The notes beneath the pieces were generated by a model. The model was not told the DNA's origin, did no database searches, and was given only the letters and a program-made list of their open reading frames with translations. From the NCBI GenBank assembly GCA_046339335.1, contig JBKDUV010000205.1:1-34523 (forward strand): 34,523 nucleotides of DNA, given 5' to 3'. The DNA comes from Planctomycetia bacterium. GTDB lineage: Bacteria; Planctomycetota; Planctomycetia; Pirellulales; UBA1268. Positions within the stretch are counted from its first letter, which is position 1. The number at the start of each line of letters is the position of its first letter. A program made the translations under genes and the position numbers. Shown piece after piece: positions 3,907 to 34,494 of this stretch.

Positions 3907-5544
3907 TCAGGGCCGCTCGGCGTTCGCCTGCAGCCGGCTGCCGAACCGCTGGGGCGACTCGTCCGCGCGGAGATACTGCGTCGCCTCCTTGATTTTCCCG
4001 AGACCGATCAGGGCCGCGGCGAGATTGACGCGGGCGGCATCCGTCCACCGTCCCTGCGGATGCTCGCCAAGGGTCACGCGCTGCAAAAAATCGACCGCGG
4101 ACCGATCCTCGCCGGCTGCCAGCGAGAGAATGCCGAGCCAGTAGCCCGCGTCCTCCCGCATCCGTTCCAGGGTCCGCGTCAGGCCGTCACGTGCCTGCGG
4201 GGGCACGGTCGCCACGGCCTCGGCGATCTCCCGCGGACTCGGCCGGGAGGCAAGGTAGGCCTCCCGCGCGCCGGCGATGTCCCCGCGGAACTCGCGGACC
4301 CGCGCGGCGAACAGTGGCCGGAGAAACCGCGGCCCATCCGGCCGCTCCTCGATATCGAAACGCGATTCCTCGCGGTCGGCGCCCGTGCCGACCGGCGGCC
4401 GCCTCGCATATTGCCTGATCACGGACGGCAGCGTCGGGATGTCGAGCGGCGCGAGGTCGGCCTGCACGGCAGACCGCAGGCGGCCCGGATCCGCGCGCCG
4501 GCGCGAAAGCGTCTCGAAGGGAAACTCCCAAAAGCCGCCACGACCCTGAACCGCGCCCGGAATCCCCTCCCGGGCCCGGTCGAGCACCCCGGCCGTGTCG
4601 AGCGTCACCCTCGGCCCGTGGAGGCGATCGAACGCCGCCGCCATGTCGGCGCCGCGGCCGCTGACGAGCCAGTGATCGGCCGCCACGAGTGGCACGAGAC
4701 GAGTGACGTCGGCGGCCTGGACCGGGTACGGTCGGTCCGGCAGGGACAACGCCCGGAGGATGCCCGTGTCCGCGGCTGCCTGCCGGGCCGTGGCGATTCC
4801 GACACCGCCCGGCCCCGGCACCGGCATGCCGTAGGCGGGATCGAAGAGATATGCCTCGCCGTCGATGATGGCAGCCGGCAGCCAGGGCCGCAGGCCGTCG
4901 TCACCGCCGGTCGCGAGCATCACCCCGTCGATGCCGGCCTGACGCAGCAGTTCGAGAAAGATCCAGGCCCGCTGCGGACCGCTCGCCCGGCCGGAGAGCA
5001 GAATCTCGCCGGGCAGCAGCCACCGGCTGCCTGGTGCGTCGGCGGTCGGCACTGCCGGGGGATCGGCAACGCTCGCCAGGGAACGCACGGTCCAATCAAA
5101 GAGTTCCGCGGCCACCGCGACCGCGTCCTCCCCGGCCCGGCGTTCTCGCGCCTGCCGAGCCACGCCGGCAAGCCAACACAGATCGCGCAGGCCCCGGAAG
5201 TCTTCGCTGCCGTGAACGCCTTGTCGAGCCTCGGCGTCGACCCGGAGCCGCTCGGGCAACGCGAACAGAAGCGGATCGGGATGCGGGCCGGCCACGGCCG
5301 GCTGCAGCCGACGCCATTCAGTGATCCGCTCGGACACCTGGCGGGCGGCCTCGTCGTCGAGATACTCGTCGAGCCGCTCGATCACCGCCAACGCGCCGGC
5401 GAGGATCGAATCCCCGGCGGTCTTGTTCGACACCGTCGCGCCGGCGGGCAGGCGCGACTTGGGAACGGCCGCCGGCCGCCCCGAGCAGCCGGCCAGCGAA
5501 ACGGAAACCGTCCAGGTGACCGCCGCGATCGTGGCTGCCCTCAC
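3907..5544 (-). CDS. Predicted lipoprotein with transglutaminase-like segment and C-terminal TPR-like helices
   Basis: Lipobox LAGC after a hydrophobic stretch; '[14 protein letters not shown]...YLFDP' TGase-like pattern; '[14 protein letters not shown]', '[14 protein letters not shown]' TPR-like; GTGA overlap with kdsA stop. Confidence 0.65.
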
Positions 5545-6380
5545 TGCCGCCCTCCGTGGAGTCGCGCCTCGTGGATCAGGAGCACCCGCTCGACCACGGC
5601 CGGCAGGGCATCGAGCGGCACCATGTTCGGCCCGTCACTGGGACTCCGGTCCGGGTCGGGATGCGTCTCGAAAAACAGGCCGTCGATGCCGACGGCGGCC
5701 GCAGCCCGGGCGAGCGGTTCCACCAGGTTTCGATCCCCGCCGGTGGCCTCGCCGAGGCTGGCCGGCTGTTGCACGGAGTGCGTCGCGTCGAAAATCACCG
5801 GCACTCCCAAGCCGCGCATCAACGGCAGGCCGGTGAAATCGTTGACCAGGCGGCCGTAGCCGAAAAAGGTGCCCCGCTCGCAGAGGAGCACGTCGCGGCA
5901 ACCACCGGCAAGAAGTTTCGCCACCACATGTTTCATGTCGCCCGGCGCGACGAACTGCCCCTTCTTGACGTTCACGGCCTTTCCGGTCGCTGCAGCTGCC
6001 AGGAGGAGATCGGTCTGCCTGCAGAGGAACGCCGGCACCTGCAGCATGTCGCAGACGCCACCGGCCGCGGCGGCCTGCTCGGGCAGGTGGACGTCGGTGG
6101 TGACGGGCAACCCGGTGACCGTTCGCACCTTGTCGAGGACCGCGAGTCCGTCGTCGAGTCCCGGCCCGCGAAACGCCGCGCCGCTGGTGCGGTTCGCCTT
6201 GTCGTACGATGCCTTGAACACGACCTGCACGGGCAGCCGCGCGGCGAGCGCGACCAGCCGGTCGGAGATCCGCAGGCAGAGGTCTTCGGTCTCGATGACG
6301 CACGGGCCGGCGATCAGCACCAGCGGCTGGTCAGGGCCGCAGCGATGCGGACCGATGCAGGCGGGGAGGCGGGGATTCAC
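5541..6380 (-). CDS. kdsA: KDO-8-phosphate synthase
   Basis: [61 protein letters not shown]; GAGGT RBS before GTG 6380. Confidence 0.97.
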
Positions 6381-6414
6381 GGCACGGACCTCACTGAACA
6401 AAAGGAGGCATGGA

Positions 6415-6453
6415 GGCAGTGTTGGGATGGGGGCAGTATTGGGATGGGGGCAG
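6415..6453 (+). repeat. 17-bp tandem repeat (GGCAGTRTTGGGATGGG x2.3) forming a four-G-tract motif
   Basis: Units 6415-6431, 6432-6448 and partial 6449-6453, one mismatch. Confidence 0.85.
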
Positions 6454-6471
6454 CCGCCCGTCTCGCTGGCA

Positions 6472-6477
6472 ATCATA
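6472..6477 (-). promoter_or_regulatory. Putative -10 box (TATGAT) for kdsA
   Basis: Near-consensus -10 on minus strand ~90 nt upstream of kdsA start; no clear -35. Confidence 0.4.
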
Positions 6478-6784
6478 CCGCGACCCCGAAGCGACCTGCC
6501 GCGCGGCCGTCCGTCGGCTCACTCGTTCACCGCGGAGGCACGCCGTGCAAAATGCAACGCACTGCCGCGAAATCGAGCGCTGCGGACAGACTCTGGCGAC
6601 GGCGAAGTCGCCTCGGCAGGTCCGCGGCCCGCTGCCGCGAGCCGGCGGATTCGATCGGGAAACAGAGAAAAAGCGGCATGGGACGCCGTACCGCACCCCC
6701 TCATGTGTCTGCGGCTCACGAAAAAACCGGGCTGGCACGCGGGATGCTCAGATGTTTGTTGCGGCAGCGCGGCTTTCGCGTTGC

Positions 6785-6907
6785 CCCCACCGATCGACAT
6801 GCAAAGGTGGGGCCTCCGACTTGATTCCGGGCGTGCGGTCGCCTTGCCCCTGACCCGCATTCCCTCAGACAGGATGCTCCTGTCGGGTCAGAGGCCCCAC
6901 TTTTTTT
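6785..6907 (+). ncRNA. Candidate structured RNA / attenuator ending in U7
   Basis: 10-bp closing helix 6807-6816/6891-6900 followed by T7; inner helices 6817-6820/6838-6841, 6851-6857/6884-6890, 6868-6874/6878-6884; alternative helix 6785-6791/6806-6812. Family not recognised. Confidence 0.4.
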
Positions 6908-6973
6908 CTCCTCCTCCGCGGCCCGATCAGTGGCGACGAAGCCCATCGAAAAGACTAGAAAAACAGGGCTCTC

Positions 6974-7003
6974 TTGACGGTCCATGGGGTCCGACGATAG
7001 CCT
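6974..7003 (+). promoter_or_regulatory. Putative sigma-70 promoter of tRNA-Thr locus (TTGACG-N18-TAGCCT)
   Basis: -35 at 6974-6979, -10 at 6998-7003, A-tract upstream (UP-like), ~65 nt before tRNA. Confidence 0.55.
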
Positions 7004-7066
7004 GCGGAGTTCTGGCCTGCTGTCTGGCGGATTCCCCCCGGGACAGTCCGGCCTGACAGCCACCGC

Positions 7067-7140
7067 GCCAGCGTAGCTTCAATTGGCAGAGCACCGCATT
7101 CGTAATGCGGGGGTTGCGGGTTCGACTCCCGCCGCTGGCT
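7067..7140 (+). tRNA. tRNA-Thr(CGT), CCA not encoded
   Basis: Acceptor GCCAGCG/CGCTGGC+T; anticodon arm CCGCA-TTCGTAA-TGCGG; T arm GCGGG-TTCGACT-CCCGC; D arm with GG. Confidence 0.95.
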
Positions 7141-7186
7141 TTCCGGTTCCAGAAACGTCCGTTTGCAGCATCAGGAGAGTCTCTCG

Positions 7187-8521
7187 ATGGCAGCCACCAG
7201 CGCCGCACCGCGGCTGGACATCCGCGAAATGATCACCGGCAACGGCCCCTTCGGCCCGGCGGAAATCCGTCGTCTCGTGGACGGTCTGGGGGCAGATTCC
7301 GGCGTGCACCGGGATCTCCGCGCCGCCGTGCGCGAACTCGAGTCGCAACCCGACCGCAGCCCGGCCGCTGCGGTCAAACTCGGCGTCTGCCAGTTTCTCC
7401 TCGGCCGCAGCAAGGAGGCGTTGGACACGCTCCGGACCGGCGACGGCGGAGCGCTCGCGCTTTTCTACCAGGCGTCGGCGCACGCTGCCCAGCAGGCACA
7501 CGACAAGGCGCGGGAATCGTTCGAGGCGGCCCGCAAGGCCGGCTACGACGCCGCCGCCTGCGCGGCTGGCATCGCCGAGGCGTTCCGGGCCTGTGGCAAG
7601 GCACAGGACGCCCGCCGGGAAATCGAACTTCTCGGTGCACAGGCTGACTCCTCGGCCGCCGCCCTGACCGCCCGCGGGCTGATTGCCTCCGATCTTGGCC
7701 AGCCGGTCGCCGATTCTGTGGCGGCTTTTGAGAAGGCCCTGGCCATCGATCCCGGCCATTCGGAGGCTCTGTTCGCGCTCGGGGTGATCAACGATCGGCT
7801 CGGCAACGACGCAGAAGCCCGCGAATGCTACGAGCGGTCGCTGAAGCGGTATCCGCAGAGTGTCGGCGCCCTCCTCAACCTCGGCATCATGTTCGAGGAT
7901 GGCGATGACTTCACCCACGCCCAGCAGTGCTACCGGCGGATTCTCGAGGTCTATCCGGATCATCCACGGGCCCGGCTGTTTCTCCGGGATTCCTCGGCGT
8001 CCGGCGACCTGCATCTCGACGAGCAGGAGCAGCGGCAGCGGGACCGACTCGACCAGGTGATGCAACTCCCGGTGAGCGATTTCGAACTTTCGGTCCGCAG
8101 TCGCAACTGCCTGCAGAAGATGGGCATCCTGACGCTCGGGGACCTTGCCAGGACGACCGAGGAAGAAATTCTTGCCAGCAAGAACTTCGGCGAGACAAGC
8201 CTCCAGGAAATCAGGGAGATGCTGGCTTCGAAAGGCCTGTCGCTCGGGCAGGCGGTCCGGCCCACGGCCGTCGGGGAGCCTGAGCCGGAGCCGCTGGAGG
8301 CCGAGGCCGTGGATCAGGAGATCAACGCCCTGCCGATCACCGAACTGAATCTGTCGGTCAGGGCGCGGAAGTGCACGACGAAACTCGGCATCAACACCAT
8401 CGGCGACCTCGTTCGGAGGACGGCGGAGGATCTGCTGGAATGCAAGAACTTCGGCGTCACGAGCCTCAACGAAGTCCGGGAAAAACTGGCCGAGCGCGGC
8501 CTCAAGCTCCGCGGAGAGTGA
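7187..8521 (+). CDS. TPR-repeat protein with two tandem RNA polymerase alpha C-terminal domains (not true RpoA)
   Basis: AGGAGA RBS, ATG 7187; TPR motifs (AFEKALAIDPGHSEALFALG, CYERSLKRYP, CYRRILEVYP); two alphaCTD copies LSVRSRNCL..KNFGETSLQEI and LSVRARKC..KNFGVTSLNEV; no alpha N-terminal domain. Confidence 0.9.
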   Translation: MAATSAAPRLDIREMITGNGPFGPAEIRRLVDGLGADSGVHRDLRAAVRELESQPDRSPAAAVKLGVCQFLLGRSKEALDTLRTGDGGALALFYQASAHAAQQAHDKARESFEAARKAGYDAAACAAGIAEAFRACGKAQDARREIELLGAQADSSAAALTARGLIASDLGQPVADSVAAFEKALAIDPGHSEALFALGVINDRLGNDAEARECYERSLKRYPQSVGALLNLGIMFEDGDDFTHAQQCYRRILEVYPDHPRARLFLRDSSASGDLHLDEQEQRQRDRLDQVMQLPVSDFELSVRSRNCLQKMGILTLGDLARTTEEEILASKNFGETSLQEIREMLASKGLSLGQAVRPTAVGEPEPEPLEAEAVDQEINALPITELNLSVRARKCTTKLGINTIGDLVRRTAEDLLECKNFGVTSLNEVREKLAERGLKLRGE

Positions 8522-8750
8522 CGCACGCCCGCATCTGGACCCGGGTCCGGGACCTGCGCGGAACGGCCTGCGATCCGCCCCGGGTGTCGCTCCACGGAAG
8601 CGGCCAGGAAAGGCTTTCCCCCCGTTTCGTAAACCCTTGTCGAGCAACGTGTTCCGACACGACTGCTGGCGTCTCGAATTTGCCGCGAGGCTTTTTCGTC
8701 GGTAGCCTTGCCGGGATAGCAGAGACGCATCTCCCAGGAATTTCACGCGC

Positions 8751-9860
8751 ATGACGACGGCGAGCCTCAAGGACAAGCGGGTCAGGGATTTGGCAAGGTT
8801 GGCCAAGCAGCACGGCGTCTCAGGCTGGCACTCGATGCGCAAGGATCAGCTCATCAAGGCACTGGTTCGCAAGGCGAAGGGATCGTTGCCGCGGTCCTCC
8901 GGCGACGGCGAGCACCGGCAGGGAGTTTCCCCGGCGGTTGCCGTACGGACCGCTCCCTCGTGTGATCCCCGCGTGGCGGCCCGGATCGCCGAGGCCCGCG
9001 ACCGGCTGTCGCGGGTCAAGGATCTCGCCACGCGGCCCGAGCAGGCGCGGGGCGCGCGGCGGGACCGCGATCGGCTCGTGCTCATGGTCCGCGGGCCGCA
9101 CTGGCTGCACGCCTTCTGGGAGGTCACCTCCCGAAGCATCGACCGTGCCCGGGCCGCGCTCGGTCAAGAATGGCACGCGGCCAGGCCCGTGCTCCGGGTC
9201 GTGCAACTCGACAACGAGGTGCCCAACTCGCCGGCGGCGAAGGTGATCCGCGAAATCGAGGTCCTTGGCGGCGTCAAGAACTGGTTCATCGACGTGCGCG
9301 ACCCGCTGCGGTGCCGGGTCGAACTCGGATATCGGGCGGCGAGCGGCCGGTTTCATGCCCTGGGTCGCAGCAATGCCGTCAACACGCCGGTGGCTTCGCA
9401 GGGGGACACGCTCGATGCCCACTGGGGAGACATCGCCGGCGACTGCGACCGGATCTACTCCTTGAGCGGCGGCTTCGCCGCGGAGAACGGCCCGGCCGAA
9501 CTCCAGGAACTGTTCGAGGAGCGACTGCGACGGCCGATGAGCCCGCCCAATTCCCGGCACGCGGTCGTGGAGCCCGAGGAACCCGAGGCGGTGGCCTGCG
9601 ACTGCGAACTGCAGGTCGATGCGGAGATGGTGATTTACGGAGCGACGCGGCCTGACGCCTATGTCACCCTCCATGGTGAGCCGGTGAAACTGGCGGCCGA
9701 CGGGACGTTCCGCGTGCGGGTCGAGATGCCGAACAGGCGGCAGGTGATCCCGATCGTTGCCAGCGCCCCGGAAGCCGGCGGACGGAGGACGGTCGTCCGT
9801 GCGGTGGAGCGCAATACGAAGACCATGGAACCTTACGGCCGCGACTCGGGCGAGTACTGA
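8751..9860 (+). CDS. Rho-N-terminal-like domain + DUF4912-like protein
   Basis: N-term LKDKRVRDLARLAKQHGVSGWHSMRKDQLIKAL (Rho-N pattern); DRLVLMVRGPHWLHAFWEV, NWFIDV, ELGY, RSNAVNTP; C-term VDAEMVIYGAT Ig-like part. Confidence 0.8.
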   Translation: MTTASLKDKRVRDLARLAKQHGVSGWHSMRKDQLIKALVRKAKGSLPRSSGDGEHRQGVSPAVAVRTAPSCDPRVAARIAEARDRLSRVKDLATRPEQARGARRDRDRLVLMVRGPHWLHAFWEVTSRSIDRARAALGQEWHAARPVLRVVQLDNEVPNSPAAKVIREIEVLGGVKNWFIDVRDPLRCRVELGYRAASGRFHALGRSNAVNTPVASQGDTLDAHWGDIAGDCDRIYSLSGGFAAENGPAELQELFEERLRRPMSPPNSRHAVVEPEEPEAVACDCELQVDAEMVIYGATRPDAYVTLHGEPVKLAADGTFRVRVEMPNRRQVIPIVASAPEAGGRRTVVRAVERNTKTMEPYGRDSGEY

Positions 9861-10163
9861 CGTCGCACGACCACGATTGGTCACGGATGGGAAAGGGGGC
9901 CGGCGGCGATAAGTTTTCTGCCATGTTCGTGATGCTGTCGATCCATGCCGGTGAGCTCTTAACGAGGCTCGTTGGGGGCCGATCGATGGTTGCTGTCGCG
10001 CGTCACGCCGGCTCGTTCCGGATCACGCGCCCCGCAATCCAAGGCACCCCCGTTTTTCCTAAACGAGCTCTCCGCATCACACGACACCACGGCATCGCGG
10101 TGGAAGACTTATCGCCCCCGGTCCCGACCGTTGTTCGGGCGGCCCGCGAAGTTCCCCGACATG

Positions 10164-11798
10164 TCAACGGCCCCGGCTGCGGGCAGCCTTCGTGGCCCAG
10201 GCATCGAAAGCCTGCGTTGGCGGCATCTTGAAGACCTGCGTGAAGGCGTCGTCGAACGAGGCCCCGTTCTCCACGCTCGCTACGACCTGGCGAAGCCGGG
10301 ATCCCGTGGCGATCGCCCCCACGAAGGCTCCCCCGACCACCGCGGCGGCGACCGGATCGGATTGGTCGCTGAAGTAGTCCTTCGGCAGGCCGACCCTGCC
10401 GACCGCCATCGGGATCTCCTTTTTCCACTCCTGGGCCAGCGGTGCCTTGGGAACGATCCGTATGGCCACGGCCCGGCCCGCCCCGCGCACGAACCAGGGG
10501 GGCAGTTCACGCCCCGCCAGCGCCGCGGCGGCGCTCTGTTCGGCAAGCAGCCGCCTGGTCTCCGGTTCATCAACCCGCCCCGCCCCGATCGCGACCGCCC
10601 CGTAGGCGACGTCCCCGGAAACGCCGGCATGACCGAGCATGCCGCGCGGCCGTTCGACGCCGACCACCTCCTGCCAGAAGGCCGAGTAGTCGTACGGCTT
10701 GGCGAACGCGAAGACGACGACGCCCCCCTTGAGCAGCTGCCCGTCTTCGGCTCCGAGTTCGCCTGCCACCCGGTCCAGTAGACTGGCGGCCTCGACGTCG
10801 ACCGCCTCCATCCGCTCCGCGGCGAGGTTGCCGATCAGGCAGACCTGCTCCCGGCTCGCGACCAGCGGTTGTTCGTCGGGAATCGCCCGCTGCCAGACCT
10901 TTTCGGCCGCGGCAAACCGAATCGCGGCGAGTTCCTTGCCCGAGAGCCGGCGGGCCCGGCCCGCGGCGGCCACCGCATCGAGCGGGCTCTTGCCGGTGAG
11001 CACGTCGATGCGGGCTCCCTCATCGATCCAGCGCTCGATCAGGGTGATGACGTCGTCGGCGAGCGGATTCTTGTTGAGCGGCATCCGCTGCCCGTCGATG
11101 CCGCGGCCGCGGAGTTTTTTCACCAGCAGGCTCTCGGCCCCCTTGCCGATCACGACCGGCGACTTCGACCGTCCCCCGGCGAGCAGGGCGTCGAGGCTCG
11201 TCATCCGCAGGTTCGCCTCGGGGTCGCGGTCGTCGTGACAGGTGACGCAATGGGTGATGAAGATCGGTGCCACGTCGGTCGAGAAAGCCACCTCGCCGGG
11301 GCGGACGACGGCGGCCTTCACCGGCGCCGAAGGCGGGGCAGCGGGGGCCGCACCCCGGGCCAGGACGTCGATCGACACCGTCTGATCCGGGCCGTCGAAC
11401 GGGGCGCCGGCGGCGATCCATTTCGTGATCACCGCGACCTCGTCGGCCGTCACCTTGCCACCGCCCCGCGGCATGTCGCCCGTGAGGATCACCTCCAACA
11501 GACGACTGCCGCTCGGATTTCCCCGTTGCACGAATCCGGAGGCGAGCAGCGCCGCATGCGACGGCATGGCGAAGTTGCCCTTGTTGCCGGCGACGTGACA
11601 AGCACCGCACTTGGTCGCCAGGATCGGTGCGACGTGCCGGCTGAACGACGTGCCCCTGCCGGCGGCGGCGTCTTGACTGCGGGCCGGCGGCAGGGCCATC
11701 GCCCGGGCTGCGGTCATGGCCACCGCGCCGGTCAGGCGAAGCCCGACGCCGCCTCGGCCAACGAGCACAGTCCGCTCCGCGGCTTTGACGCGAGTCAT
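10164..11798 (-). CDS. Exported planctomycete-type dihaem c cytochrome domain protein
   Basis: Two repeats SF..VAPI...CxxCH...MP...I..WI..GA (CGACH 11595-11609, CVTCH 11235-11249); N-terminal signal-like region; start uncertain. Confidence 0.85.
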   Translation of the reverse strand: MTRVKAAERTVLVGRGGVGLRLTGAVAMTAARAMALPPARSQDAAAGRGTSFSRHVAPILATKCGACHVAGNKGNFAMPSHAALLASGFVQRGNPSGSRLLEVILTGDMPRGGGKVTADEVAVITKWIAAGAPFDGPDQTVSIDVLARGAAPAAPPSAPVKAAVVRPGEVAFSTDVAPIFITHCVTCHDDRDPEANLRMTSLDALLAGGRSKSPVVIGKGAESLLVKKLRGRGIDGQRMPLNKNPLADDVITLIERWIDEGARIDVLTGKSPLDAVAAAGRARRLSGKELAAIRFAAAEKVWQRAIPDEQPLVASREQVCLIGNLAAERMEAVDVEAASLLDRVAGELGAEDGQLLKGGVVVFAFAKPYDYSAFWQEVVGVERPRGMLGHAGVSGDVAYGAVAIGAGRVDEPETRRLLAEQSAAAALAGRELPPWFVRGAGRAVAIRIVPKAPLAQEWKKEIPMAVGRVGLPKDYFSDQSDPVAAAVVGGAFVGAIATGSRLRQVVASVENGASFDDAFTQVFKMPPTQAFDAWATKAARSRGR

Positions 11799-11801
11799 GG
11801 G

Positions 11802-12164
11802 CTACCCCGCTCCAGAGGCCCGCTCCGTTGCGGAACGCACGGCGGCGAACGTTGGCGTCTGTTCCTGAACCGCCGGCTCCGGCCGCACGCGGCGACGCCT
11901 GCCGCGCAACCGGCGGCGGCGGCCGGCACGGGCATCGTGGCCAACCAGCGTCAGCACGGCGTTGGCGGCCACGGAGACGACCAGGGACCCGATCCAGGCG
12001 ATGCCGCCGATGAGTGCCCCCCGGCCGCAGGCGATCGCCCCCGTCCGGTCGCCGAGGACGTCGAGCAGGGCGGCCAGACCGAGCAGCACCACGAGCAGGA
12101 CGGGCAGCAGCAAGGCCGCCACGATTCCCCACGCCAGCAGTCGCCGCAGACCATCGCGCGTCAT
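11802..12164 (-). CDS. Small membrane protein (2 TM, Arg-rich tail)
   Basis: Two hydrophobic helices; stop 3 nt from the next start. Confidence 0.65.
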   Translation of the reverse strand: MTRDGLRRLLAWGIVAALLLPVLLVVLLGLAALLDVLGDRTGAIACGRGALIGGIAWIGSLVVSVAANAVLTLVGHDARAGRRRRLRGRRRRVRPEPAVQEQTPTFAAVRSATERASGAG

Positions 12165-12387
12165 GAAACTTCCGCAGGGTTCGTCGCGGGGGCATCGCCC
12201 GGCCTTGGAACGCCGGACGGGGCGATCACATGGAAACGGGATTGTCCTGTCCGGCGCTGCCCAGCGTCAAGGAATTCCCTGCACGGCCGGGCAACCACCT
12301 TCGCCGCCTCGCGTTCCCGGCGTTTTTCTTTTCGCGTGCCTAGGGCAGAATGATGTTTTCTTCGGTCAGCGCCCCGGAGGCTGCATC

Positions 12388-14895
12388 ATGGCTCGAGCGT
12401 CGTGCGGCATGATCGCAGGCCATCGCCCGGACCGCCCCGCGCGGTCGGCACGGCCGGCGGCCGCGGTGTCGCCACCGTTTCGGGCCCCCGACCACGGGTA
12501 TCGCCGTGTCACATCCCGCGCGGTCCACGCCGCGGCGTGGATCGCGCTGCTGGCCGGCCCGGCCAGTCCCGACGAGGTGCAGTTGCGCGACGGCCGCGTG
12601 CTGGCGGGACGATTCACGTATCTGCCGAGCGTTCTCGTCGACCCGCTGCAGGCGGCAAGACAGGCAGCGGAGGCGGGCAACACGATCCTCGTCTGCGACG
12701 ACGAACTGACGCGGACCATGGTGGCGCGGCGCCAGGTCGTCAAGGTGGAGGAGGGACCGGTCGACCTCGGGCTGGAGCGAATCCGCATCCAGCAGAACGT
12801 GCCGGAAAAGGGCAGGGCCGTGATCGGCATCGGCGGCGCCATCCGGGCGACGCCGTTCGACGAGTTCGGCCGCCGGATCCTCTCGCTCGACACGGCCGGG
12901 GGCCGTGTCGACGTCGTGCAGGGGATCACCGAGATCACGCCGCGTTGGACGCGCATCCAGAGCATCGTCACCGAGCAGCCGATCCTGCTGGACATGCGGC
13001 TGGCCACGAACATCATCCCGCGAGAGGAACTGCGTCGGGTGATCGTGCAGGGCACGGCGCGAACGAATTCCGACGAACGGCTGCGCGTCGTGCGGCTGCT
13101 CATCCAGGGCGAGCGGTACGACGAGGCCCGCCGGGAGCTCGACGAGGTGCTCCGGGATTTTCCCGAACTCTCAGGAATCGTGGACCAGCGCCGCAAACTG
13201 GCCGAGTTTTCCGCCCGGCAGATCCTCGCCGAACTCTCCCTCCGCGGCCGCTCCGGTCAGGACCGGCTGGCCATGCGGCTGCTGGATGCGTTCCCCATCG
13301 ACAACCTCGGTGGCGAGACCCTGGAGGCGATCCGCGAGGCCCGCGACCGGTACCAGGAACGTCAGACGCAGGCCCAGCGGCTCGTCGCCCGGCTCGAGGA
13401 GCGGGTGGCGGGCATCGAAGACGAAGTCAGTCGGCGGACCGCCGCCGAAGTCGTGGCGGAGATCCGCGAGCAACTGACGTTCGCCACCGTGGAACGACTG
13501 GCAACGTTCGAGCAGCTCTCGGCCGACGCGGGGGCACCGGCGGACCGGCTCGTGGCGATCGCCATCGGCGGCTGGCTGCTGGGGGTCGGGGGAGGCACCG
13601 AAAACCTCAAGTTGTCCCTGTCGGCATTTCGTCTCCGGGGGCTGATCCGCGACTACCTCCGCGCGGCCGAGCAGGCGAACCGAGACGAACTGTTTGCCCG
13701 GATGCGTGAGCAGGAGGCGTTCGAGCCGGCGACCGTCGCCGCCATCGCCGCGCACATGCGGCCGCCACTCGACGCCCCTGCGGCCGTGTCGCCGGGACTG
13801 CACTCACTGACCCTCTCCGGCCTCCCCCACGGCGACACGGCGGCCTGCCTGGTGCAACTGCCCCCGGAATACGATCCGCTGCGTCGCTACCCGGCTGTCG
13901 TCGCCCTGCATGCCGCCGGCATGACGCCGCTCTCGCAGGTCGAGTGGTGGGCCGGGATGCCCGCCCGCGACGGAAGCCGGGCCGGCCAGGCAACCCGCCA
14001 CGGGGTGATCGTGATCGCTCCGGCCTGGACCCGGCCTGACCAGGTGGGCTACGAGTACTCCGCCCGCGAACATGCGGTCGTGCTCGGCGCCGTCCGCGAG
14101 TCCTGCCGCCGGTTCGCCATCGACACCGACCGGGTGTTCATCGCCGGGCACGCGCAGGGGGGCAACGCGGCCTGGGACATCGCCCTCGCCCATCCGGACA
14201 CGTGGGCCGGCATGGTGGGCATCTCGGCCACGGCCGACAAGTACGTCCGCTTCTCCATGAAGAATGCCCGGCGCCTGCCCCTGTACCTCGTCGGAGGTGA
14301 ACTCGACGGCGGCACGCTGAAGCGGAACGCGGTCGAACTGGACGAGTATTTCGAACGCAGCGGTCCGGCGGGCAGTCCGGAAGACTTCGACGTCACCTAC
14401 GTGGAGTACCGGGGACGCGGGCACGAGCATTTCGCCGACGAGCAACTGCGCATCTTCGACTGGCTGGGCCGCAAGAAGCGGTCGCTGTTTCCCCAGAAGA
14501 TCGAGGCCGTGTCGCTGCGGCCCTGGGACCGTTTTTTCTGGTGGGTCGAGTACGACGGCCCGCCGGAACGAACCGTCGTGCTCCCGGCCATGTGGCCACC
14601 CGTCAAGGGAACGACCGCCTTCGAGGTCGAGGCCAAGACACTGACCGCCAAGCCTGGGAACATCGTCAGCGTCCAGTGCGGTGCGCAGAGCGTGCGGATC
14701 TGGCTGAGTCCCGAACTCATCGACTTCTCACTGCCGACGACGGTGAAACTGGCCGGCACGAAGCTGTTCTCCGGCCAGGTGATCCCCGACCTGCGCGTGA
14801 TGCTCGAGGACCTCCGGCTGCGGGCCGATCGGCAGCATCCGTTCTGGACGGTCGTGGAGAAAAAGCCCGCCGCTGCCGGCCGCGGCCGGGACTGA
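12388..14895 (+). CDS. Large exported protein with C-terminal alpha/beta-hydrolase (esterase/peptidase-like) domain
   Basis: GGAGG RBS before ATG 12388 (start uncertain); signal-like AWIALLAGPASP-DEV; LPPEYDP.RRYPAVVALH, IDTDRVFIAGHAQGG, GELD, GRGHEHF. Confidence 0.8.
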   Translation: MARASCGMIAGHRPDRPARSARPAAAVSPPFRAPDHGYRRVTSRAVHAAAWIALLAGPASPDEVQLRDGRVLAGRFTYLPSVLVDPLQAARQAAEAGNTILVCDDELTRTMVARRQVVKVEEGPVDLGLERIRIQQNVPEKGRAVIGIGGAIRATPFDEFGRRILSLDTAGGRVDVVQGITEITPRWTRIQSIVTEQPILLDMRLATNIIPREELRRVIVQGTARTNSDERLRVVRLLIQGERYDEARRELDEVLRDFPELSGIVDQRRKLAEFSARQILAELSLRGRSGQDRLAMRLLDAFPIDNLGGETLEAIREARDRYQERQTQAQRLVARLEERVAGIEDEVSRRTAAEVVAEIREQLTFATVERLATFEQLSADAGAPADRLVAIAIGGWLLGVGGGTENLKLSLSAFRLRGLIRDYLRAAEQANRDELFARMREQEAFEPATVAAIAAHMRPPLDAPAAVSPGLHSLTLSGLPHGDTAACLVQLPPEYDPLRRYPAVVALHAAGMTPLSQVEWWAGMPARDGSRAGQATRHGVIVIAPAWTRPDQVGYEYSAREHAVVLGAVRESCRRFAIDTDRVFIAGHAQGGNAAWDIALAHPDTWAGMVGISATADKYVRFSMKNARRLPLYLVGGELDGGTLKRNAVELDEYFERSGPAGSPEDFDVTYVEYRGRGHEHFADEQLRIFDWLGRKKRSLFPQKIEAVSLRPWDRFFWWVEYDGPPERTVVLPAMWPPVKGTTAFEVEAKTLTAKPGNIVSVQCGAQSVRIWLSPELIDFSLPTTVKLAGTKLFSGQVIPDLRVMLEDLRLRADRQHPFWTVVEKKPAAAGRGRD

Positions 14896-15069: not shown

Positions 15070-17115
15070 TCACTGGCGTGCCGGAGGATCATCCGGCTGA
15101 ACGGCCACGTTCGGCTGCTGCCCCTGCCGCGGGATGACCGCGCCGGCGACGTACCAGCCATCGACGGTCGTCTGCAGGACCAGTCAGCAGACGCCGAGAT
15201 GCCGGCGGATTGCCTCGAACGGCGGCAGCGTCTCGCCGTCGAGCCGCTGCTCGCGGACGGCTCCGGGCTTGGCCTCGCCGAGCGCCCCGTTGAGCACCTG
15301 CCCGAGGAGGCTCTTCGACTTCGGCATCGAACCCTCCCGCAGGAGTTCGTAGGAGGGACGCAGCGAGTCCTCCTCCCGGACGAACGTCCGGACGGCCGTC
15401 TTCCCCGGCAGGAGGCCGTCGAGCAGCGTGGCTGCGGCCCGGTAGTCGGCCGCCGCCGCGAGCGGACCGCCCGCGGGCGGCGCGAGGACCTTCTCGAGGA
15501 TGTCCCGGTGCGAGGCGATCAGCAGGTGCCCGTGGGCCACTGTCACCGTCGAGTGGGGCAGGAGCCGCTCCTCCTTCTGCCGCATCCGCTGCCGGCGCCG
15601 GTGCGCCGCGTCATCGTCCCCCTCGTGTCCGTCCGCGTGGTTGACGCCGCCGCCCGACAGTTCGACCTGAACCTGGAGTTCATCGTGGGAGCGGTCGATC
15701 AGTTCCCAGACCCCGTGTCCGGCCACCTCGATGCGACGCATGTCCGAGTCGGCTTTCATGAGTTTGTCGATCGTCTTGGCGAGCCGTGTTGGATCGGTCG
15801 ACTCGATCGCGATCACGATCCGTTCGCAGTCGGTGCCGAGCGGCTCGGTGTGACCCGACAGGAACACCACCCGACTCCCCAGCACGCCGATCAGGTCGGC
15901 CTCCAGGTCGACCTGCGGGCCGTCCGGCTCCTCGCGAATCGAGTCGACGACGTCCTTGAAGACGCCTTTCTCGCCGATGACGTCATCCACGAGCCCGTCG
16001 GCCGACATGAATGCCTTGCGGATATCCCATTGGATCTCCGTCCAGCCGGCGAGGCTGCCGCCGGCCCAGGCGGGGGGCGCGACGCCGGCCGCGTCCGGGA
16101 ACCGCAGGATCCGTGCACCGAGATCGAACCGGTCGGGCCCGAACGGATCACGGCCGGGAAGGGCGGGGGCGTGGATGAGCGTGTGGTGACGGATCGCCTG
16201 GCCGTTGGCGGCGAAGACGAGCGTGCCCCCGGCCCCCTTGATGGCGTCGAATCCCTGCCGACCGAGGATCGCCACCATGTCGGGCCCCTTGCGCTTCTCG
16301 CGCGGCGGATTGGTCACCTGGTAAGCCTTTGCGAACCGCAACGGGTCGATGAACCAGCGGGCCGGGGCCTCGGCTGCCGTGACTTTGCCGCCGCATGTCT
16401 CGGCGACCTTGGCGAACGACGGATTCGTCGCCAGGCAGTCCTTGCGGCCCTGGGCCAAGGACTGAAAGGCCTGTCCGACCTGGACCGCGTCGTCGCCGAC
16501 GACGAGCGCCGTCGGCGCCAGAGCCAGCGCGACCTGCCGAGGCGGTCGGCCGCCGACTTCCTTGTCGTCCGCGGGCAGTTGGTAGACCACGAGTTGCGGC
16601 GGAGCGGCCTTGATGTCCACCCGTGTCGCCATCTTCTCGACCAATCCCTTCGTGATCCTGTCGACGACCGTCCTGGCCTCGGCCTCATGCCCGGTCGTGT
16701 CGACGAGCAGAACGGTGCAGAGCCGCCCGGGCCGCCCCTCGATTCCCGGTGCCTCGACCGCCGCAAGGGCCACCTCGCCCCCCGGAACCTTCTCCAGATC
16801 CTCGAGCGTCACGCCCAGGCTCGCCAGCCGATTCCTGCCCTTCTTGGCCACTTGTTCCCGCAGGCCGTCGAGAAACGGCTTCATGGTCGGATCGGCGAGC
16901 AACTGACCGTAGGAAGACCGTTCAAACCGCTCACGGGCCGCACGAAAGTCGCCCGCACTCACCCACGCCCTGGTGGTTTCGGGCAGCACCTGCTCGCTCG
17001 GCGCCATCCCGGCGCCATTCCCCGGCCCGGCGATGCCGAGTGCGGCCAGCACCACGGCGACTGCGATGCGCCGCCGGATCCGGCCGGCGATCGACCCACG
17101 GAAGCAAGACGGCAT
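15070..17115 (-). CDS. Large exported hypothetical protein with in-frame TGA at 15184-15186 near the C-terminus
   Basis: Signal peptide after ATG 17115; ORF track stops at 15184 but the frame stays open with coding-like codons for 37 aa (LVLQTTVDGWYVAGAVI...) to TGA 15070-15072. Confidence 0.7.
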
Positions 17116-17170
17116 GTCAGAAATCCTTGCGGAGGGCGGGGAACGGAGGCATCCCGACAGGACCACCTAG

Positions 17171-19898: not shown

Positions 19899-21398
19899 TC
19901 AGACCTCGTGGACGAGGGCCATGTTGTGCCCGCCGGCGCCGAACCCCGCGCCGGCCACGAGGATGATCCGGTCGCCGCGCCGCAGCCGTCCCTCGCGCAG
20001 ACCCCACGTGCAGACCTGCTCCAGCAGACCGCTGGTGTCGGCACCGGCCGCGACGGCCAGCGGCGTCACGCCCCAATAGAGGGCCATCTGCCGGAGCGTC
20101 TCCGGGCTGTCGCTCAGCCCCACGGTCGGCACCGCACCGCGCCGCTTGGAGCGGGCGATGGCGGCGATGCCCGTCTTGCTCGCCACCACGACCAGCCGGG
20201 CGTCGAGCTGGGCGGCGATCCGCCCGGCACCGTCGACCACGGCCTGGGTGATCGGATGGAGCCCGTCGACGAGCTTCTCGGGCGGCGGGGGAAATTCCGC
20301 CGCCGCGACGGCCGTGCCGCTGCGGTCGCGGCCGAACCGTCCCTCCAGGTACTGCCAGCGGTCGGCGAGGTACTGCCGTTCGGTGGCCTCGGCGATGCGG
20401 CGCATCATCGCCACGACGAGGTGCGGGTGGTCTCCGATCGCCGTCTCGCCCGAGAGCATGCAGGCGTCGGCGCCGTCAAGGATCGCGTTGGCGACGTCGG
20501 TGGCCTCGGCCCGCGTCGGCCGCCGCGCGTGCTGCATGCTGTCGAGCATCTGCGTGGCCACGATCACCGGCGTCTGAAACCGCTGGCAGGTGCGGATGAT
20601 CTGCTTCTGCACCATCGGCACCGTGGCGACGTCGATCTCCACGCCGAGGTCGCCCCGGGCCACCATGACGACGTCGGCAGCCTCGACGATCGCGTCGAGG
20701 TCGTCGATCGCCTCGCGCTTCTCGATCTTGGCGACGACACGGGCCCGCGAGCCACGGGTCCGGAGCAGTTCCTTGAGCAGGTGGACTTCGACCGGCGACC
20801 GGACGAACGACAGGCTGACGAAGTCGGCACCCGCCCCGGCCGCCCATTCGGCATGCAGCCAGTCGTCGGCGCTCATCGCCGCCACGGACAGCTTCACGCC
20901 CGGCAGGTTGACCCCCTGGCGGCTGCGGACCACGCCCCCCTGGATGACGCGGCACCGGGCCCGGTCGGCATGCACCTCCTCGACGACGAGGCTCACGGTG
21001 CCGTCGGCGAGCATCACCGAGTCCCCCACGGCGAGTTCATCGAGCAGCCGGGCATAGGTGACGGTGAACCCGTCCGGTCCTGCCACGGTGCCGCGGACGA
21101 AGGTGAACGCTCCCCCCTCGACGCAGTTCACCTGTCCGCCCGGGATCTCCCCGAGGCGAATCTTCGGACCGGCGAGGTCGACGAGCACGCCGACCGGCCG
21201 TCCCGCGGCGGACGAGACCTGCCGCACCCGGTCGAGCGTCTCCTGGTGCTCGGCCGTCGATCCATGGGCCATGTTGAGGCGAAACACGTCGACGCCGGCG
21301 GCGAGCAGCGAACGGATGGCCTCCGCGGATCTGGTCGCGGGACCGATCGTGGCCACGATCTTCGTGCGCACTACCGGCGCGGGGGCGGGGAACGACAT
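19899..21398 (-). CDS. pyk: Pyruvate kinase
   Basis: RTKIVATIGPA, FRLNMAHG, DLAGPKIR, AKIEK, MVARGDLGVE, ATQMLDSM, RPTRAEATDVANAILDGADACMLSGETA; GAGGAG RBS. Confidence 0.97.
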   Translation of the reverse strand: MSFPAPAPVVRTKIVATIGPATRSAEAIRSLLAAGVDVFRLNMAHGSTAEHQETLDRVRQVSSAAGRPVGVLVDLAGPKIRLGEIPGGQVNCVEGGAFTFVRGTVAGPDGFTVTYARLLDELAVGDSVMLADGTVSLVVEEVHADRARCRVIQGGVVRSRQGVNLPGVKLSVAAMSADDWLHAEWAAGAGADFVSLSFVRSPVEVHLLKELLRTRGSRARVVAKIEKREAIDDLDAIVEAADVVMVARGDLGVEIDVATVPMVQKQIIRTCQRFQTPVIVATQMLDSMQHARRPTRAEATDVANAILDGADACMLSGETAIGDHPHLVVAMMRRIAEATERQYLADRWQYLEGRFGRDRSGTAVAAAEFPPPPEKLVDGLHPITQAVVDGAGRIAAQLDARLVVVASKTGIAAIARSKRRGAVPTVGLSDSPETLRQMALYWGVTPLAVAAGADTSGLLEQVCTWGLREGRLRRGDRIILVAGAGFGAGGHNMALVHEV

Positions 21399-21505
21399 GG
21401 CGGACACTCCTCGGGGGACGTGGTGGGAAGGCCTGATCCGCCTGCGGGCATTGTGACGCCGCCGGCGCAGCGCGTCGATGCCCCCCGGCGTCCTCGCGAC
21501 CGACG

Positions 21506-21511
21506 TATACT
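21506..21511 (+). promoter_or_regulatory. Putative -10 (TATACT) in pyk/SDR divergent region
   Basis: Near-consensus hexamer in a very GC-rich intergenic region, ~65 nt before SDR start; the same hexamer precedes two other genes. Confidence 0.4.
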
Positions 21512-21576
21512 GCCGCCGCCGCGACGGGTCGGGCCCGCGGCCCGCCCGGCGGGGAACACGCCGGCGAGGCCCGAGT

Positions 21577-22407
21577 ATGTGGAAGAAGCGTCGCATCATC
21601 GTCACCGGCGGCACGGCCGGCTTCGGGTTCGTGCTGGCCCGGCACCTCGCCGCGGCCGGGGCCAGGGTGCTCGTCGTGGGCCGGTCGGCGGAAGGCGTGC
21701 GGCTCGCCCTCGCCGCCTGCGATTCCGTCGCCGGCCTCGATCTGCGCGGCCTCGCCGCCGACCTTGGTCGGACGGGTGAGGGAGAACGGGTCGCGGGCGA
21801 GTGCCAGCGGATGCTCGGCGGCATCGACGACCTGTTCTGCTGTGTGGGACGGTCGGGACGGCAGCGGATGCTGGACACGAACGCGGAGGAGCTGCGCGGG
21901 TTCCTCGACGCCAACTTGTTCGCGGCCGCGGAGATCACGCGGGCCGCAGCCGCCGACGTGGCCGCAGCGCGTGGGCACGTCGTCTTCATCGGCAGCCTGG
22001 CCGGCAAGCTCGCCGCCCCGTTCATGGGGCCGTACGGCGTCGCCAAGGCGGCGCTGGCGGCCTACGCGGACGCCGTACGGCTGGAACTCGCCCCACGCGG
22101 GTGCCACGTGCTCCTCGTCTCCACAGGGCCGATCGCCCGGGCCGCCGACGACCCGGCCGCGGACCGGGAAACGGACCGATATGCGGCCGACGTCGCCCGC
22201 GCGAACCTGCCGGCGGCAGCCAGCGCGCCGGGTGGCACCGCGCGGCGTCGCCGCCTCGACCCCGACCAGCTTGCACGCGCCGTCCTCACGGCCTGCCGGC
22301 GGCGCCGCTGCGAACTCGTCGTACCCCGGTCCGCGGGGCTGCTGGCGGGATTCATCGAGTGGTTTCCCGATCTCGGCCGCCGCATCCTCGCCCGGTTCAC
22401 CGGCTGA
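21577..22407 (+). CDS. Short-chain dehydrogenase/reductase
   Basis: VTGGTAGFG, ADL, IGSLAG, catalytic YGVAK; start ATG 21577. Confidence 0.9.
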   Translation: MWKKRRIIVTGGTAGFGFVLARHLAAAGARVLVVGRSAEGVRLALAACDSVAGLDLRGLAADLGRTGEGERVAGECQRMLGGIDDLFCCVGRSGRQRMLDTNAEELRGFLDANLFAAAEITRAAAADVAAARGHVVFIGSLAGKLAAPFMGPYGVAKAALAAYADAVRLELAPRGCHVLLVSTGPIARAADDPAADRETDRYAADVARANLPAAASAPGGTARRRRLDPDQLARAVLTACRRRRCELVVPRSAGLLAGFIEWFPDLGRRILARFTG

Positions 22408-24841: not shown

Positions 24842-26287
24842 ATGCGTCGGGGCGTCGGCGGAGTGGCCGCGGCGATCCTCGCCGTGGCGTCGTGCCACTG
24901 CGACCCGGCGCTGGCGCAGGGCGGACTGGGCATGGAGCCGTGGCGGCTCGAAGCGGTGGAATTGAGCGATGGCGTCCGGCTCGAGGGGCTGATCGACGAA
25001 GTCGGCCAAAACGTCATTTTCGTCGACGTGGTGAAGCGGCCGCCGGGCCGGCCGATGTACATCGTCTCCTGGGGACCGATCAGCCGGGAGCGGATCCGGA
25101 AACTGGAGACGCTCCCGGCCGCCGATCACGAGCGGCTCGCCGCCCGGGTCGAGGACTTTCTCGCCGGCCGGGAAGCCGCCGCCGCGGGGGCGAAACCGGC
25201 CGGCCTGCGCCGCGACGGGGAATCCGGCCCGTGGCGGTACGAAGCGGCGGCATTCACGTTCGAAAGCACGGCCGATGCGGCCTCCAGCCGCGATGCAATC
25301 GTGCGGCTGGAGGAGGTGTTCGGGGCGTTCGAAGTGCTCGTCCCGCCGACGGTCCGCGCCGCGGACGCCGCCCGGCCGCACGTGCGCATCTGCGGCACGG
25401 CGGCCGAATACCGGGAACTGCAGCGGCTCCTCGGCGTGCAGTTGGAAAACCCGGCCCTGTACGCCGCTGGCCGGCGACTGCTGGCTTCGTCGAGCGACCT
25501 GCCGGGGGTGGCCGCCAGGCAGGGTGCAGCGGCCGAAGCGAACGCCGCAGCAATGCGCCGGCTCAAGGAACTCGACCGCGAACTTGCCGACCGGCTCAAG
25601 GCCCTGATCGCCGACCTGGAGCGTGAGCGGGTGCTCCCCGCCGCCCGAGAACAGCTCGTCCAGCAGGTCCGCGCCCGATGGAAGAAGGAACGTGAGGCGG
25701 AGTCGCTGCGGATAGAAGCGGCCAACCGTGTCAACGTGGGGCGGCTGACCGCCGTGCGACGCGAGTTCTACGGCCGGCTCGCCCACGAGGCCTGGCATGC
25801 CTACGCCGACACGCGGCTCCGCGCCGGCGGGGAGGGTCGCCTGCCAAGCTGGCTCGACGAGGGTCTGGCTCAAGTCCTCGAGGGAGCGCCGATCGATGCC
25901 GGCGAGATCCGGCTCGGCGATCCCGACCCGCGCCGGCTGGCCGCGGTCCAGCACGGCCTGCGCGACGGGAGCCTGCCGGCCGTGTCCGACGTGATCCGCG
26001 CCGGACCGGAGCAGTTCCTGGCCGGGCACGCCCAGGCCGCCGCCCGCTCGGAACGAATGTATCTGGTCAGTTGGGCATTGGCCCTCGATCTGGCGATCGT
26101 CGCGCCGGTCCTGTCCCCGACTGCCGTCACCGCACTTTGTGCCGAGCCCCCCGGCGGCGATCCGGTGCGACAGTTCGAGACGCTCGTGGGCATGCCCGTC
26201 GCCGCTTTCGAGCCCGCCTGGCGGCGCAGGATCCTCGACCTCCGGCCCCGGACTCCGCCCCTGCGGCAGGTCATCCCGGCGCCGTGA
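24842..26287 (+). CDS. Exported DUF1570-like gluzincin metallopeptidase with coiled-coil insert
   Basis: Signal peptide; HEAWH (25784-25798) followed by LPSWLDEGLA; MYLVSWAL; AAGGA RBS. Confidence 0.75.
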   Translation: MRRGVGGVAAAILAVASCHCDPALAQGGLGMEPWRLEAVELSDGVRLEGLIDEVGQNVIFVDVVKRPPGRPMYIVSWGPISRERIRKLETLPAADHERLAARVEDFLAGREAAAAGAKPAGLRRDGESGPWRYEAAAFTFESTADAASSRDAIVRLEEVFGAFEVLVPPTVRAADAARPHVRICGTAAEYRELQRLLGVQLENPALYAAGRRLLASSSDLPGVAARQGAAAEANAAAMRRLKELDRELADRLKALIADLERERVLPAAREQLVQQVRARWKKEREAESLRIEAANRVNVGRLTAVRREFYGRLAHEAWHAYADTRLRAGGEGRLPSWLDEGLAQVLEGAPIDAGEIRLGDPDPRRLAAVQHGLRDGSLPAVSDVIRAGPEQFLAGHAQAAARSERMYLVSWALALDLAIVAPVLSPTAVTALCAEPPGGDPVRQFETLVGMPVAAFEPAWRRRILDLRPRTPPLRQVIPAP

Positions 26288-34304: not shown

Positions 34305-34494
34305 GGCAGGAACGTCCGGGTGGAGAAGGATGCCGTGGCCCGACGGCCGGCGGTCCCCGGAACACGGACGCAGATTCGGTGCCGAACCCGGACGCCGGCC
34401 TGCGAAAAACACGCCGCACGAGCTTTTTCCCCGGCATTCACCGAACGGTTGGCCAGACCGGGCCGGCTGCCGGCAAGGTCCCCCGGCCGGCGGC

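Follow-up and report, generated by a model that had tools for sequence, protein, structure and literature searches.

The C-terminal domain of the RNA polymerase alpha subunit (alphaCTD; PF03118; 1COO, 1LB2) is the part of the enzyme that reads UP elements and receives activators. AlphaCTD folds also occur outside RNA polymerase, in stand-alone alphaCTD proteins of the PRK07758 type and in alphaCTD-like segments of the BREX protein PglW, both of which are, to our knowledge, functionally uncharacterised. Genes for tRNAs can be co-transcribed with a protein gene, as in the Escherichia coli thrU-tyrU-glyT-thrT-tufB operon, and the product of the 6S RNA gene regulates RNA polymerase in other bacteria. 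"Rho-like" proteins that carry the domain DUF4912 are described in PMC13613805 as conserved in Cyanobacteria and of unknown function; the one further paper in which our searches met the term DUF4912 is a cotton transcriptome study. The present analysis concerns a locus in which features recalling each of these systems lie within about 3 kb. It is found on contig JBKDUV010000205.1 (34,523 nucleotides (nt), G+C 70%) of the assembly GCA_046339335.1, a Planctomycetia bacterium of the order Pirellulales whose genome is in 410 contigs with a completeness of 89.7%; "the window" below means this whole stretch of 34,523 nt. The locus includes a gene for a 444-aa protein in which a TPR array is followed by two alphaCTDs (7187-8521), and we call both gene and protein F.

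On the sequence comparisons described below, the locus is best read as a pair of units, each conserved on its own, that are neighbours only in the window's family. Unit A would consist of a sigma-70-type promoter, a tRNA-Thr(CGT) gene and, 46 nt further on, gene F. Unit B, which in that family lies behind F, would consist of a gene for a protein with Rho_N and DUF4912 domains followed by a 6S RNA gene, an order that recurs across Pirellulales. F is a cytoplasmic, phylum-wide, single-copy protein, and its sequence and predicted structure incline us, if not strongly, to regard it as a tether, whose alphaCTD heads would bind DNA or the partners of alphaCTD and whose TPR scaffold would hold another protein. 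The features of the locus are collected in Table 1.

Table 1. Features of the tRNA-Thr/F/Rho_N-DUF4912/6S locus, in window coordinates
Feature	Position	Strand	Basis or details
Sigma-70-type promoter candidate for tRNA-Thr	6974-7003	+	-35 TTGACG 6974-6979, 18-nt spacer, -10 TAGCCT 6998-7003
tRNA-Thr, anticodon CGT	7067-7140	+	ARAGORN; Rfam RF00005, 60 bits
Gene F, 444-aa TPR-(alphaCTD)x2 protein	7187-8521 (stop included)	+	ORF (open reading frame), Pfam, NCBIfam, AlphaFold2 model
TPR superhelix and linker helix of F, about aa 12-292	7220-8062	+	AlphaFold2 model, Pfam TPR families, Foldseek
alphaCTD copy 1 of F, aa 287-347	8045-8227	+	PF03118, 74.5 bits
alphaCTD copy 2 of F, aa 375-436	8309-8494	+	PF03118, 78.1 bits
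Rho_N-DUF4912 gene, 369 aa	8751-9860	+	Pfam
Rho_N, aa 6-39	8766-8867	+	PF07498, 29.5 bits (cut-off 24.9)
DUF4912, aa 106-221	9066-9413	+	PF16258, 86.6 bits (cut-off 29.4); profile positions 3-116 of 118
Small C-terminal beta domain of the Rho_N-DUF4912 protein	about 9624-9806	+	Conserved in Planctomycetia orthologues
6S RNA (ssrS) candidate	9885-10135	+	Rfam RF00013, covariation; new, absent from the initial annotation

Architecture and distribution of F

The reading frame of F spans 7163/7187-8521; the ATG at 7187, at which the orthologues start, is preceded by an AGGAG at a distance of ten bases. Pfam places TPR_1, TPR_2 (71.1 bits), TPR_6 and related families above their cut-offs, gives PF03118 twice (141.8 bits summed over the protein, with the cut-off at 23.8) and shows no alpha N-terminal domain, in agreement with the initial annotation, which from the letters of the DNA had read the protein as a TPR array with two tandem alphaCTDs and no N-terminal domain of alpha. 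F resembles RpoA in that both of its C-terminal domains match PF03118, at 74-78 bits. Unlike RpoA, it lacks the N-terminal assembly domain, and therefore cannot be a core RNA polymerase subunit, it carries two heads on one chain behind a TPR array, and its gene lies outside the ribosomal-protein/rpoA cluster. The rpoA equivalog models TIGR02027 and NF003513 reach 131-136 bits on F against cut-offs of 228-302, and they are matched only at their C-terminal positions 220-322. Proteins of the PRK07758 type and PglW share with F an alphaCTD fold outside RNA polymerase, but they do not have its layout of a TPR array plus tandem alphaCTDs.

A canonical rpoA, which the initial annotation had expected elsewhere in the genome, was found as a full-length gene for a 329-aa alpha subunit on contig C43, outside the contig of the window, and the adjoining ORF was read by eye as ribosomal protein S4. 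Canonical RpoA orthologues were present in 41 of the 41 phylum genomes sampled. Besides rpoA and F, the genome holds a third alphaCTD-bearing gene, for a 95-aa stand-alone alphaCTD on contig C380 (L003:1465-1749, +), which matches only the C-terminal part of the rpoA models.

An AlphaFold2 model of F, built from 12 diverse orthologues and having a mean pLDDT of 84.8, predicts a TPR superhelix at aa 12-275, a linker helix at 279-292, alphaCTD1, a disordered linker at 357-373 (pLDDT below 50) and alphaCTD2. Foldseek searches with this model returned designed and natural TPR superhelices (best E 2e-9), which are generic matches only and give no functional lead.

With the window protein as query and a match defined as E<=1e-20, an orthologue of F turned up in 192 of the 201 Planctomycetota genomes of an evenly drawn sample; of the 128 high-quality genomes in the sample, 125 had one. 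There was one match per genome in all positive genomes but one, and the identity was 33-54% outside the genus. Relatives of 441-452 aa number in the thousands in a large protein collection, and the nearest ESM Atlas clusters listed, ten out of ten, are from Planctomycetota. The databases name these relatives "DNA-directed RNA polymerase subunit alpha", "alpha C-terminal domain-containing protein" or "TPR protein", as the initial annotation had surmised when it supposed that such proteins are often annotated as rpoA. A search for long alphaCTD proteins found no longer fused forms of F; it did return four unrelated proteins of 844-1297 aa (P0241-P0244) in which an alphaCTD is combined with Sigma70_r4 or with Rpb1/Rpb2-type polymerase domains, the one named source being Candidatus Omnitrophota, for the 1297-aa protein. 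The domains of F are already known, and its architecture is listed in databases. Its function is another matter: the initial annotation knew of no functional characterisation, the literature we searched contained no functional study of F, and the main text of the Planctopirus limnophila transposon-directed insertion-site sequencing (TraDIS) study (PMC10632474) does not mention it.

The first alphaCTD of F aligns to residues 244-318 of E. coli RpoA, with F numbers equal to E. coli numbers plus 39. Among 12 diverse orthologues, D298, E300, R304, N307, C308, N333, G335 and S338 of this domain are invariant, and they carry the same residues as the E. coli positions with which they align, D259, E261, R265, N268, C269, N294, G296 and S299; the two blocks P295-L309 and K332-L339, to which they belong, are invariant or nearly so. 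We take these positions to include the DNA-contacting "265 determinant" and the D259/E261 patch that touches sigma region 4. The heads of F keep both sets of residues, and we infer that they bind DNA in the manner of the alphaCTD pair of RNA polymerase.

The tRNA-Thr gene upstream of F

The tRNA-Thr(CGT) at 7067-7140 is the only one of standard length that ARAGORN finds in the genome, the other call, on contig C61, being 92 nt long. Only 46 nt separate it from the ATG of F at 7187, and a scan of this spacer listed no terminator-like site on the forward strand, both of which had been pointed out in the initial annotation and were borne out. The order is also well kept. In what follows, clade loci are those of the window's genus and family and other order loci are those of the remaining Pirellulales. 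Of the assessable loci, all 19 from the clade and 41 of the 53 from other Pirellulales have a tRNA-Thr(CGT) in the 600 nt before F and on its strand; in the latter group the spacers are 14-270 nt long.

The promoter candidate upstream of the tRNA, which ends 63 nt before it, had been called a good sigma-70-like promoter. The conservation of the pattern speaks for this description: TTGACN-N17/18-TANNNT, a pattern that was picked after the sequences had been inspected, occurs in the 150 nt that precede the orthologous tRNA in 16 of the 19 clade loci, against 0.03 expected from shuffled sequences, and in 12 of the 44 loci from elsewhere in Pirellulales, against 0.11 expected. The word "good" is harder to maintain, as a consensus scan of 6000-11000 for sigma-70 sites lists none, the candidate being missed because its -10 hexamer TAGCCT fits only three of the six consensus positions. 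In nhmmer comparisons within the clade, the region upstream of the tRNA, the tRNA-F spacer and the spacer that follows F were not conserved, apart from one marginal match.

The arrangement resembles the E. coli thrU-tyrU-glyT-thrT-tufB operon in that a tRNA-Thr behind a promoter candidate stands directly upstream of a protein gene with no terminator seen between them. It differs in that F is not a translation factor. From these features we infer that the transcript of the tRNA also gives rise to F, or that F at minimum stands under the tRNA promoter.

Gene order downstream of F

The initial annotation had treated F and the Rho_N-DUF4912 gene as a single candidate transcription-control module, each gene carrying a detached piece of a transcription protein. 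The pieces themselves are present, PF03118 twice in F and Rho_N in the second product. A joint device, in which F would mimic an alphaCTD pair, the Rho_N protein would be its partner or co-regulator and the 6S RNA a third part, draws support from the window's own relatives: of 18 genus genomes searched, 15 gave both genes, in each case side by side and in the same orientation, and in the wider clade Rho_N-DUF4912 comes next after F in 17 of 17 assessable loci. The 6S RNA gene directly downstream of the pair points the same way, as its product is a known RNA polymerase regulator in other bacteria.

Beyond the clade this pairing is lost. No DUF4912 gene follows F in any of 52 assessable Pirellulales loci outside the clade, tgt standing there instead in 35 of the 52, and the two genes are adjacent in none of 11 genomes from other families of the order; the distance between them is about 1.48 Mb in the complete genome G229 and, on a single contig, about 597 kb in G190. 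Across the phylum DUF4912 is found in only 79 of the 201 genomes, against the 192 that have F. Even inside the clade the 229-nt spacer between F and the DUF4912 gene is not conserved. The claim of one module is therefore contradicted by the loci outside the clade. Conservation of gene order, on which the initial annotation had made its proposal depend, is thus divided: the order of tRNA-Thr and F is kept across Pirellulales, whereas the F/DUF4912 pair is confined to the window's family.

A DUF4912 gene does stand next to F in one further place. In a Pirellulaceae metagenome-assembled genome unrelated to the window (L128, 1477-5427), DUF4912 is followed directly by tRNA-Thr(CGT), F and tgt, so that DUF4912 lies upstream of the unit rather than downstream of F. 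This recurrence counts for a joint device, and it looks like a second, separate juxtaposition of DUF4912 with tRNA-Thr and F; the L128 locus has no 6S match.

The Rho_N-DUF4912 protein

The second gene had been read as encoding a Rho N-terminal-like domain without the Rho ATPase, and the profile searches agree: next to the Rho_N match in Table 1, the Rho RNA-binding (cold-shock-like) domain and the RecA-type ATPase are absent, and the full Rho model TIGR00767 reaches only 13.6 bits against a cut-off of 509. The gene at 8751-9860 gives the only PF16258 match of the genome. In the structural model of the protein, the three-helix Rho_N is predicted with a pLDDT of 92-96 and DUF4912 as a beta sandwich with a pLDDT of 80-90; Foldseek searches with the DUF4912 model found generic fibronectin-III/Ig-like sandwiches and no functional lead.

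In combining Rho_N with DUF4912 and lacking the RNA-binding and ATPase domains of Rho, the protein resembles the cyanobacterial Rho_N-only "Rho-like" DUF4912 proteins (PMC13613805) and the plant protein RHON1. It differs from these proteins in that the Planctomycetia form adds a conserved C-terminal beta domain and that, in Pirellulales, its gene lies upstream of a 6S RNA gene.

A second comparison is offered by glycogen-branching clusters. Outside the window's class, 77 DUF4912 matches exceed the cut-off, and at least 37 of them lie within 8 kb of a GH57 gene, a lower bound based on the 150 GH57 matches listed out of 317. In other Planctomycetota classes (L158-L165), DUF4912 stands directly upstream of genes that Pfam identifies as GH57+BE_C alpha-glucan branching-enzyme genes; in some genomes the domains are fused, as in an 837-aa DUF4912-GH57-BE_C protein (L162:5611-8121), and in another locus (L164) a Rho_N-like sequence together with DUF4912 lies beside GH57. 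A 1040-aa fusion of GH57, BE_C and glycogen synthase also neighbours a DUF4912 gene in other classes. The window's class shares the DUF4912 domain with these clusters but not their arrangement: among the matches listed, none of its eight DUF4912 genes is near GH57, and the GH57 gene of the window genome lies on a different contig from DUF4912. In this class the DUF4912 gene is often divergent from atpBEFHA. The Rho_N-DUF4912 gene is, then, repeatedly found in two settings, near GH57 glycogen-branching enzymes in other classes and near the 6S RNA gene in Pirellulales, and the first of these, which gives it a recurrent partner other than F, counts against a joint device with F.

A candidate 6S RNA gene

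Rfam model RF00013 matches the window at 9912-10110 with 36.9 bits (E 3.5e-6 to 4e-5), all 187 model positions being aligned, and this is its sole match in the genome; a scan of 6400-10200 found no RNA families besides the tRNA and 6S matches. The candidate is unlike established 6S RNAs in that its score is below the RF00013 gathering score of 46.4. Its homologue in G223 is over the threshold at 54.5 bits, and R1, a covariance model that we built from the clade alignment of the 6S candidate, matches at the same place. The region 9885-10135 is conserved at the same position in 23 related loci (nhmmer E mostly 1e-32 to 1e-42), unlike the neighbouring spacers. RNAalifold applied to 22 sequences predicted 71 pairs, 23 of them with compensatory changes, in the form of a long, irregular hairpin in which a central bubble separates the closing stem from the apical stem. 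With RF00013 the candidate has in common this closing stem, the large bubble at the centre, the blocks GUUCGU, GGCACCC and ACGGCA and the presence of one copy per genome.

R1 found one 6S locus each in 55 of 101 sampled Pirellulales genomes, including all five places at which the Rfam model had matched in other families. Among the 54 genomes of the order with both features, the 6S gene lies within 3 kb downstream of Rho_N-DUF4912 on the same strand in 24, from 10 families, and 750 nt or less separate the two in 15 of these; laxer filters add one more case, G221. The surroundings of F in 60 other Pirellulales loci gave no 6S match. For DUF4912, 10 further Planctomycetia loci were searched to about 6 kb from the gene: the Rfam model found no 6S, and R1 found one (L153). 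According to PMC5673643, Thermogutta terrifontis has no 6S RNA and its relatives in Pirellulales are said to lack it, with citation of a 2014 screen; the 6S candidate in 55 of 101 genomes of the order bears on that statement.

Transcript evidence

The RNA evidence consists of assembled Logan contigs from two metatranscriptome runs, which cover small shares of the stretch. Two contigs match it with no mismatch: one at 7593-7870, inside F, and one at 8564-8779, which covers most of the spacer between F and the DUF4912 gene together with the first 29 nt of the second ORF, and which may be set down in favour of a joint device of the two genes. These RNA-library contigs may reflect DNA carry-over, and no contig in the two runs joins F to the second gene. 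Contigs that lie on the tRNA were rejected as transcripts of the window, as they run on into unlike sequence and belong to other organisms. Runs X3 and X4 gave no contig matching the stretch. The contigs neither show nor exclude co-transcription.

Other genes of the window

The reading frame at 32778-34412 (-) encodes a 545-aa protein of the sigma-70 family with regions 1.2, 2, 3 and 4 and a long N-terminal part without a family match; it is probably the housekeeping sigma factor. A 715-aa pyruvate kinase is encoded at 19902-22046 (-), with the kinase barrel beginning at residue 227 and about 225 N-terminal residues without a Pfam match. Four ORFs have no Pfam match and a coding-like third-position G+C: 3910-5544 (-) of 545 aa, which in the window's clade is kept beside kdsA upstream of the tRNA, 11962-14892 (+) of 977 aa, 15187-17166 (-) of 660 aa and 26139-28454 (+) of 772 aa.

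Discussion

In the reading of F as a tether, which we modestly favour, the TPR superhelix would be a protein-binding scaffold that bears two flexibly linked alphaCTD heads. Like the alphaCTD pair of RNA polymerase, the heads would bind DNA at A/T-rich minor grooves such as those of UP elements, and proteins whose usual docking site is alphaCTD may bind to them as well. The TPR scaffold would hold a partner protein, which F would in this way anchor to DNA or to the transcription machinery.

Several observations weigh against this picture of F and of the two units. F has T at the position equivalent to K298 of the E. coli alpha subunit, a difference from E. coli RpoA, although the same T is found in the canonical alpha of planctomycetes. 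In the f34 lineage the second alphaCTD is degenerate, and two DNA-binding heads are therefore not universal. No neighbour of F is universal in 20 phylum-wide loci, so none points to a partner. As to expression with the tRNA, no RNA contig from the two metatranscriptome runs joins tRNA-Thr to F, and outside Pirellulales the tRNA-Thr link was seen in none of 28 phylum loci examined with 1.5-kb flanks (the single tRNA-positive among 29 phylum-wide loci, L007, is a member of Pirellulales and was excluded from this count), so that co-expression with the tRNA is not a family-wide property of F. As to unit B, a -10-like element stands just upstream of the 6S gene in several relatives; the gene may therefore have its own promoter, and unit B need not be one transcript. 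The order-level synteny of DUF4912 and 6S is, moreover, not by itself proof of a functional tie, although such a tie may exist.

An improbable alternative, already raised in the initial annotation along with a possible coupling to growth rate through the tRNA promoter, is that F is a decoy or anti-activator, in which the alphaCTD pair would titrate activators, NusA-like or Spx-like proteins or sigma region 4 under the gate of the TPR array, with DNA binding secondary. Such a role would suit the conservation of alphaCTD1, for which the mean share of the commonest residue is 0.76 (38 sequences), compared with 0.66 for the canonical alphaCTD (27) and 0.66 for alphaCTD2 (39), figures that come from differing genome samples. 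It would also suit the retention of D298 and E300, aligned with the E. coli residues D259 and E261 that contact sigma region 4, the two heads on a flexible linker in the model, and the presence of one gene per genome throughout the phylum, as for a core regulator. The invariance of R304, N307, C308, G335 and S338 is difficult to explain in this way, however, because a pure protein decoy needs none of these DNA-contact-aligned residues. The literature we searched gave neither a partner of F nor a planctomycete activator that depends on alphaCTD; the tRNA promoter, in addition, suggests a high constitutive expression that would fit a structural factor better than a gated inhibitor.

It is similarly unlikely that F works outside transcription altogether, with its alphaCTDs serving as generic helix-hairpin-helix binders of DNA or RNA in nucleoid organisation, recombination and repair, or the handling of tRNA and other RNA. 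Some of its neighbours would fit such work: ruvA-ruvB directly follows F in five of the 20 phylum-wide loci, from three families, tgt is a frequent neighbour, and in the f34 loci the order is F, ruvA, ruvB, queH, spoIID, tgt and yajC. These are ordinary housekeeping genes, however, none of them universal beside F, and housekeeping gene order can be kept without a functional tie, as in the queA-tgt-yajC-secDF order of E. coli. F also gives weak matches to HHH_5, DNA polymerase IV, PRK07758 and PglW models of Pfam and NCBIfam, and the fold is common to proteins with no part in transcription, but all 43 solved-structure sequence matches of F are RNA polymerase alpha subunits, and its PF03118 scores are three times the cut-off. 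The DNA of Planctomycetia is highly condensed according to PMC10632474, a further point for this reading.

The joint device of F and the Rho_N-DUF4912 protein we regard as more doubtful still, given the gene orders outside the clade. An extended form of the tether, which we offer as a speculation and as a whole think quite unlikely, would make F a phylum-specific accessory subunit that provides a second alphaCTD pair in trans, the TPR array docking on the polymerase or on sigma and the heads reading UP-like DNA or capturing regulators; in the window's family F, the Rho_N protein and the 6S RNA would then form one island of RNA polymerase control under a growth-rate-sensitive tRNA promoter, with Rho_N-DUF4912 as a 6S-binding or 6S-processing factor.

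Genetic tools exist for Planctopirus and Gemmata, and F is directly testable there. It is among the most widely kept genes of the whole phylum. If it binds DNA or the polymerase, as the tether reading would have it, F would belong to the lineage-specific core of planctomycete transcription or nucleoid biology.

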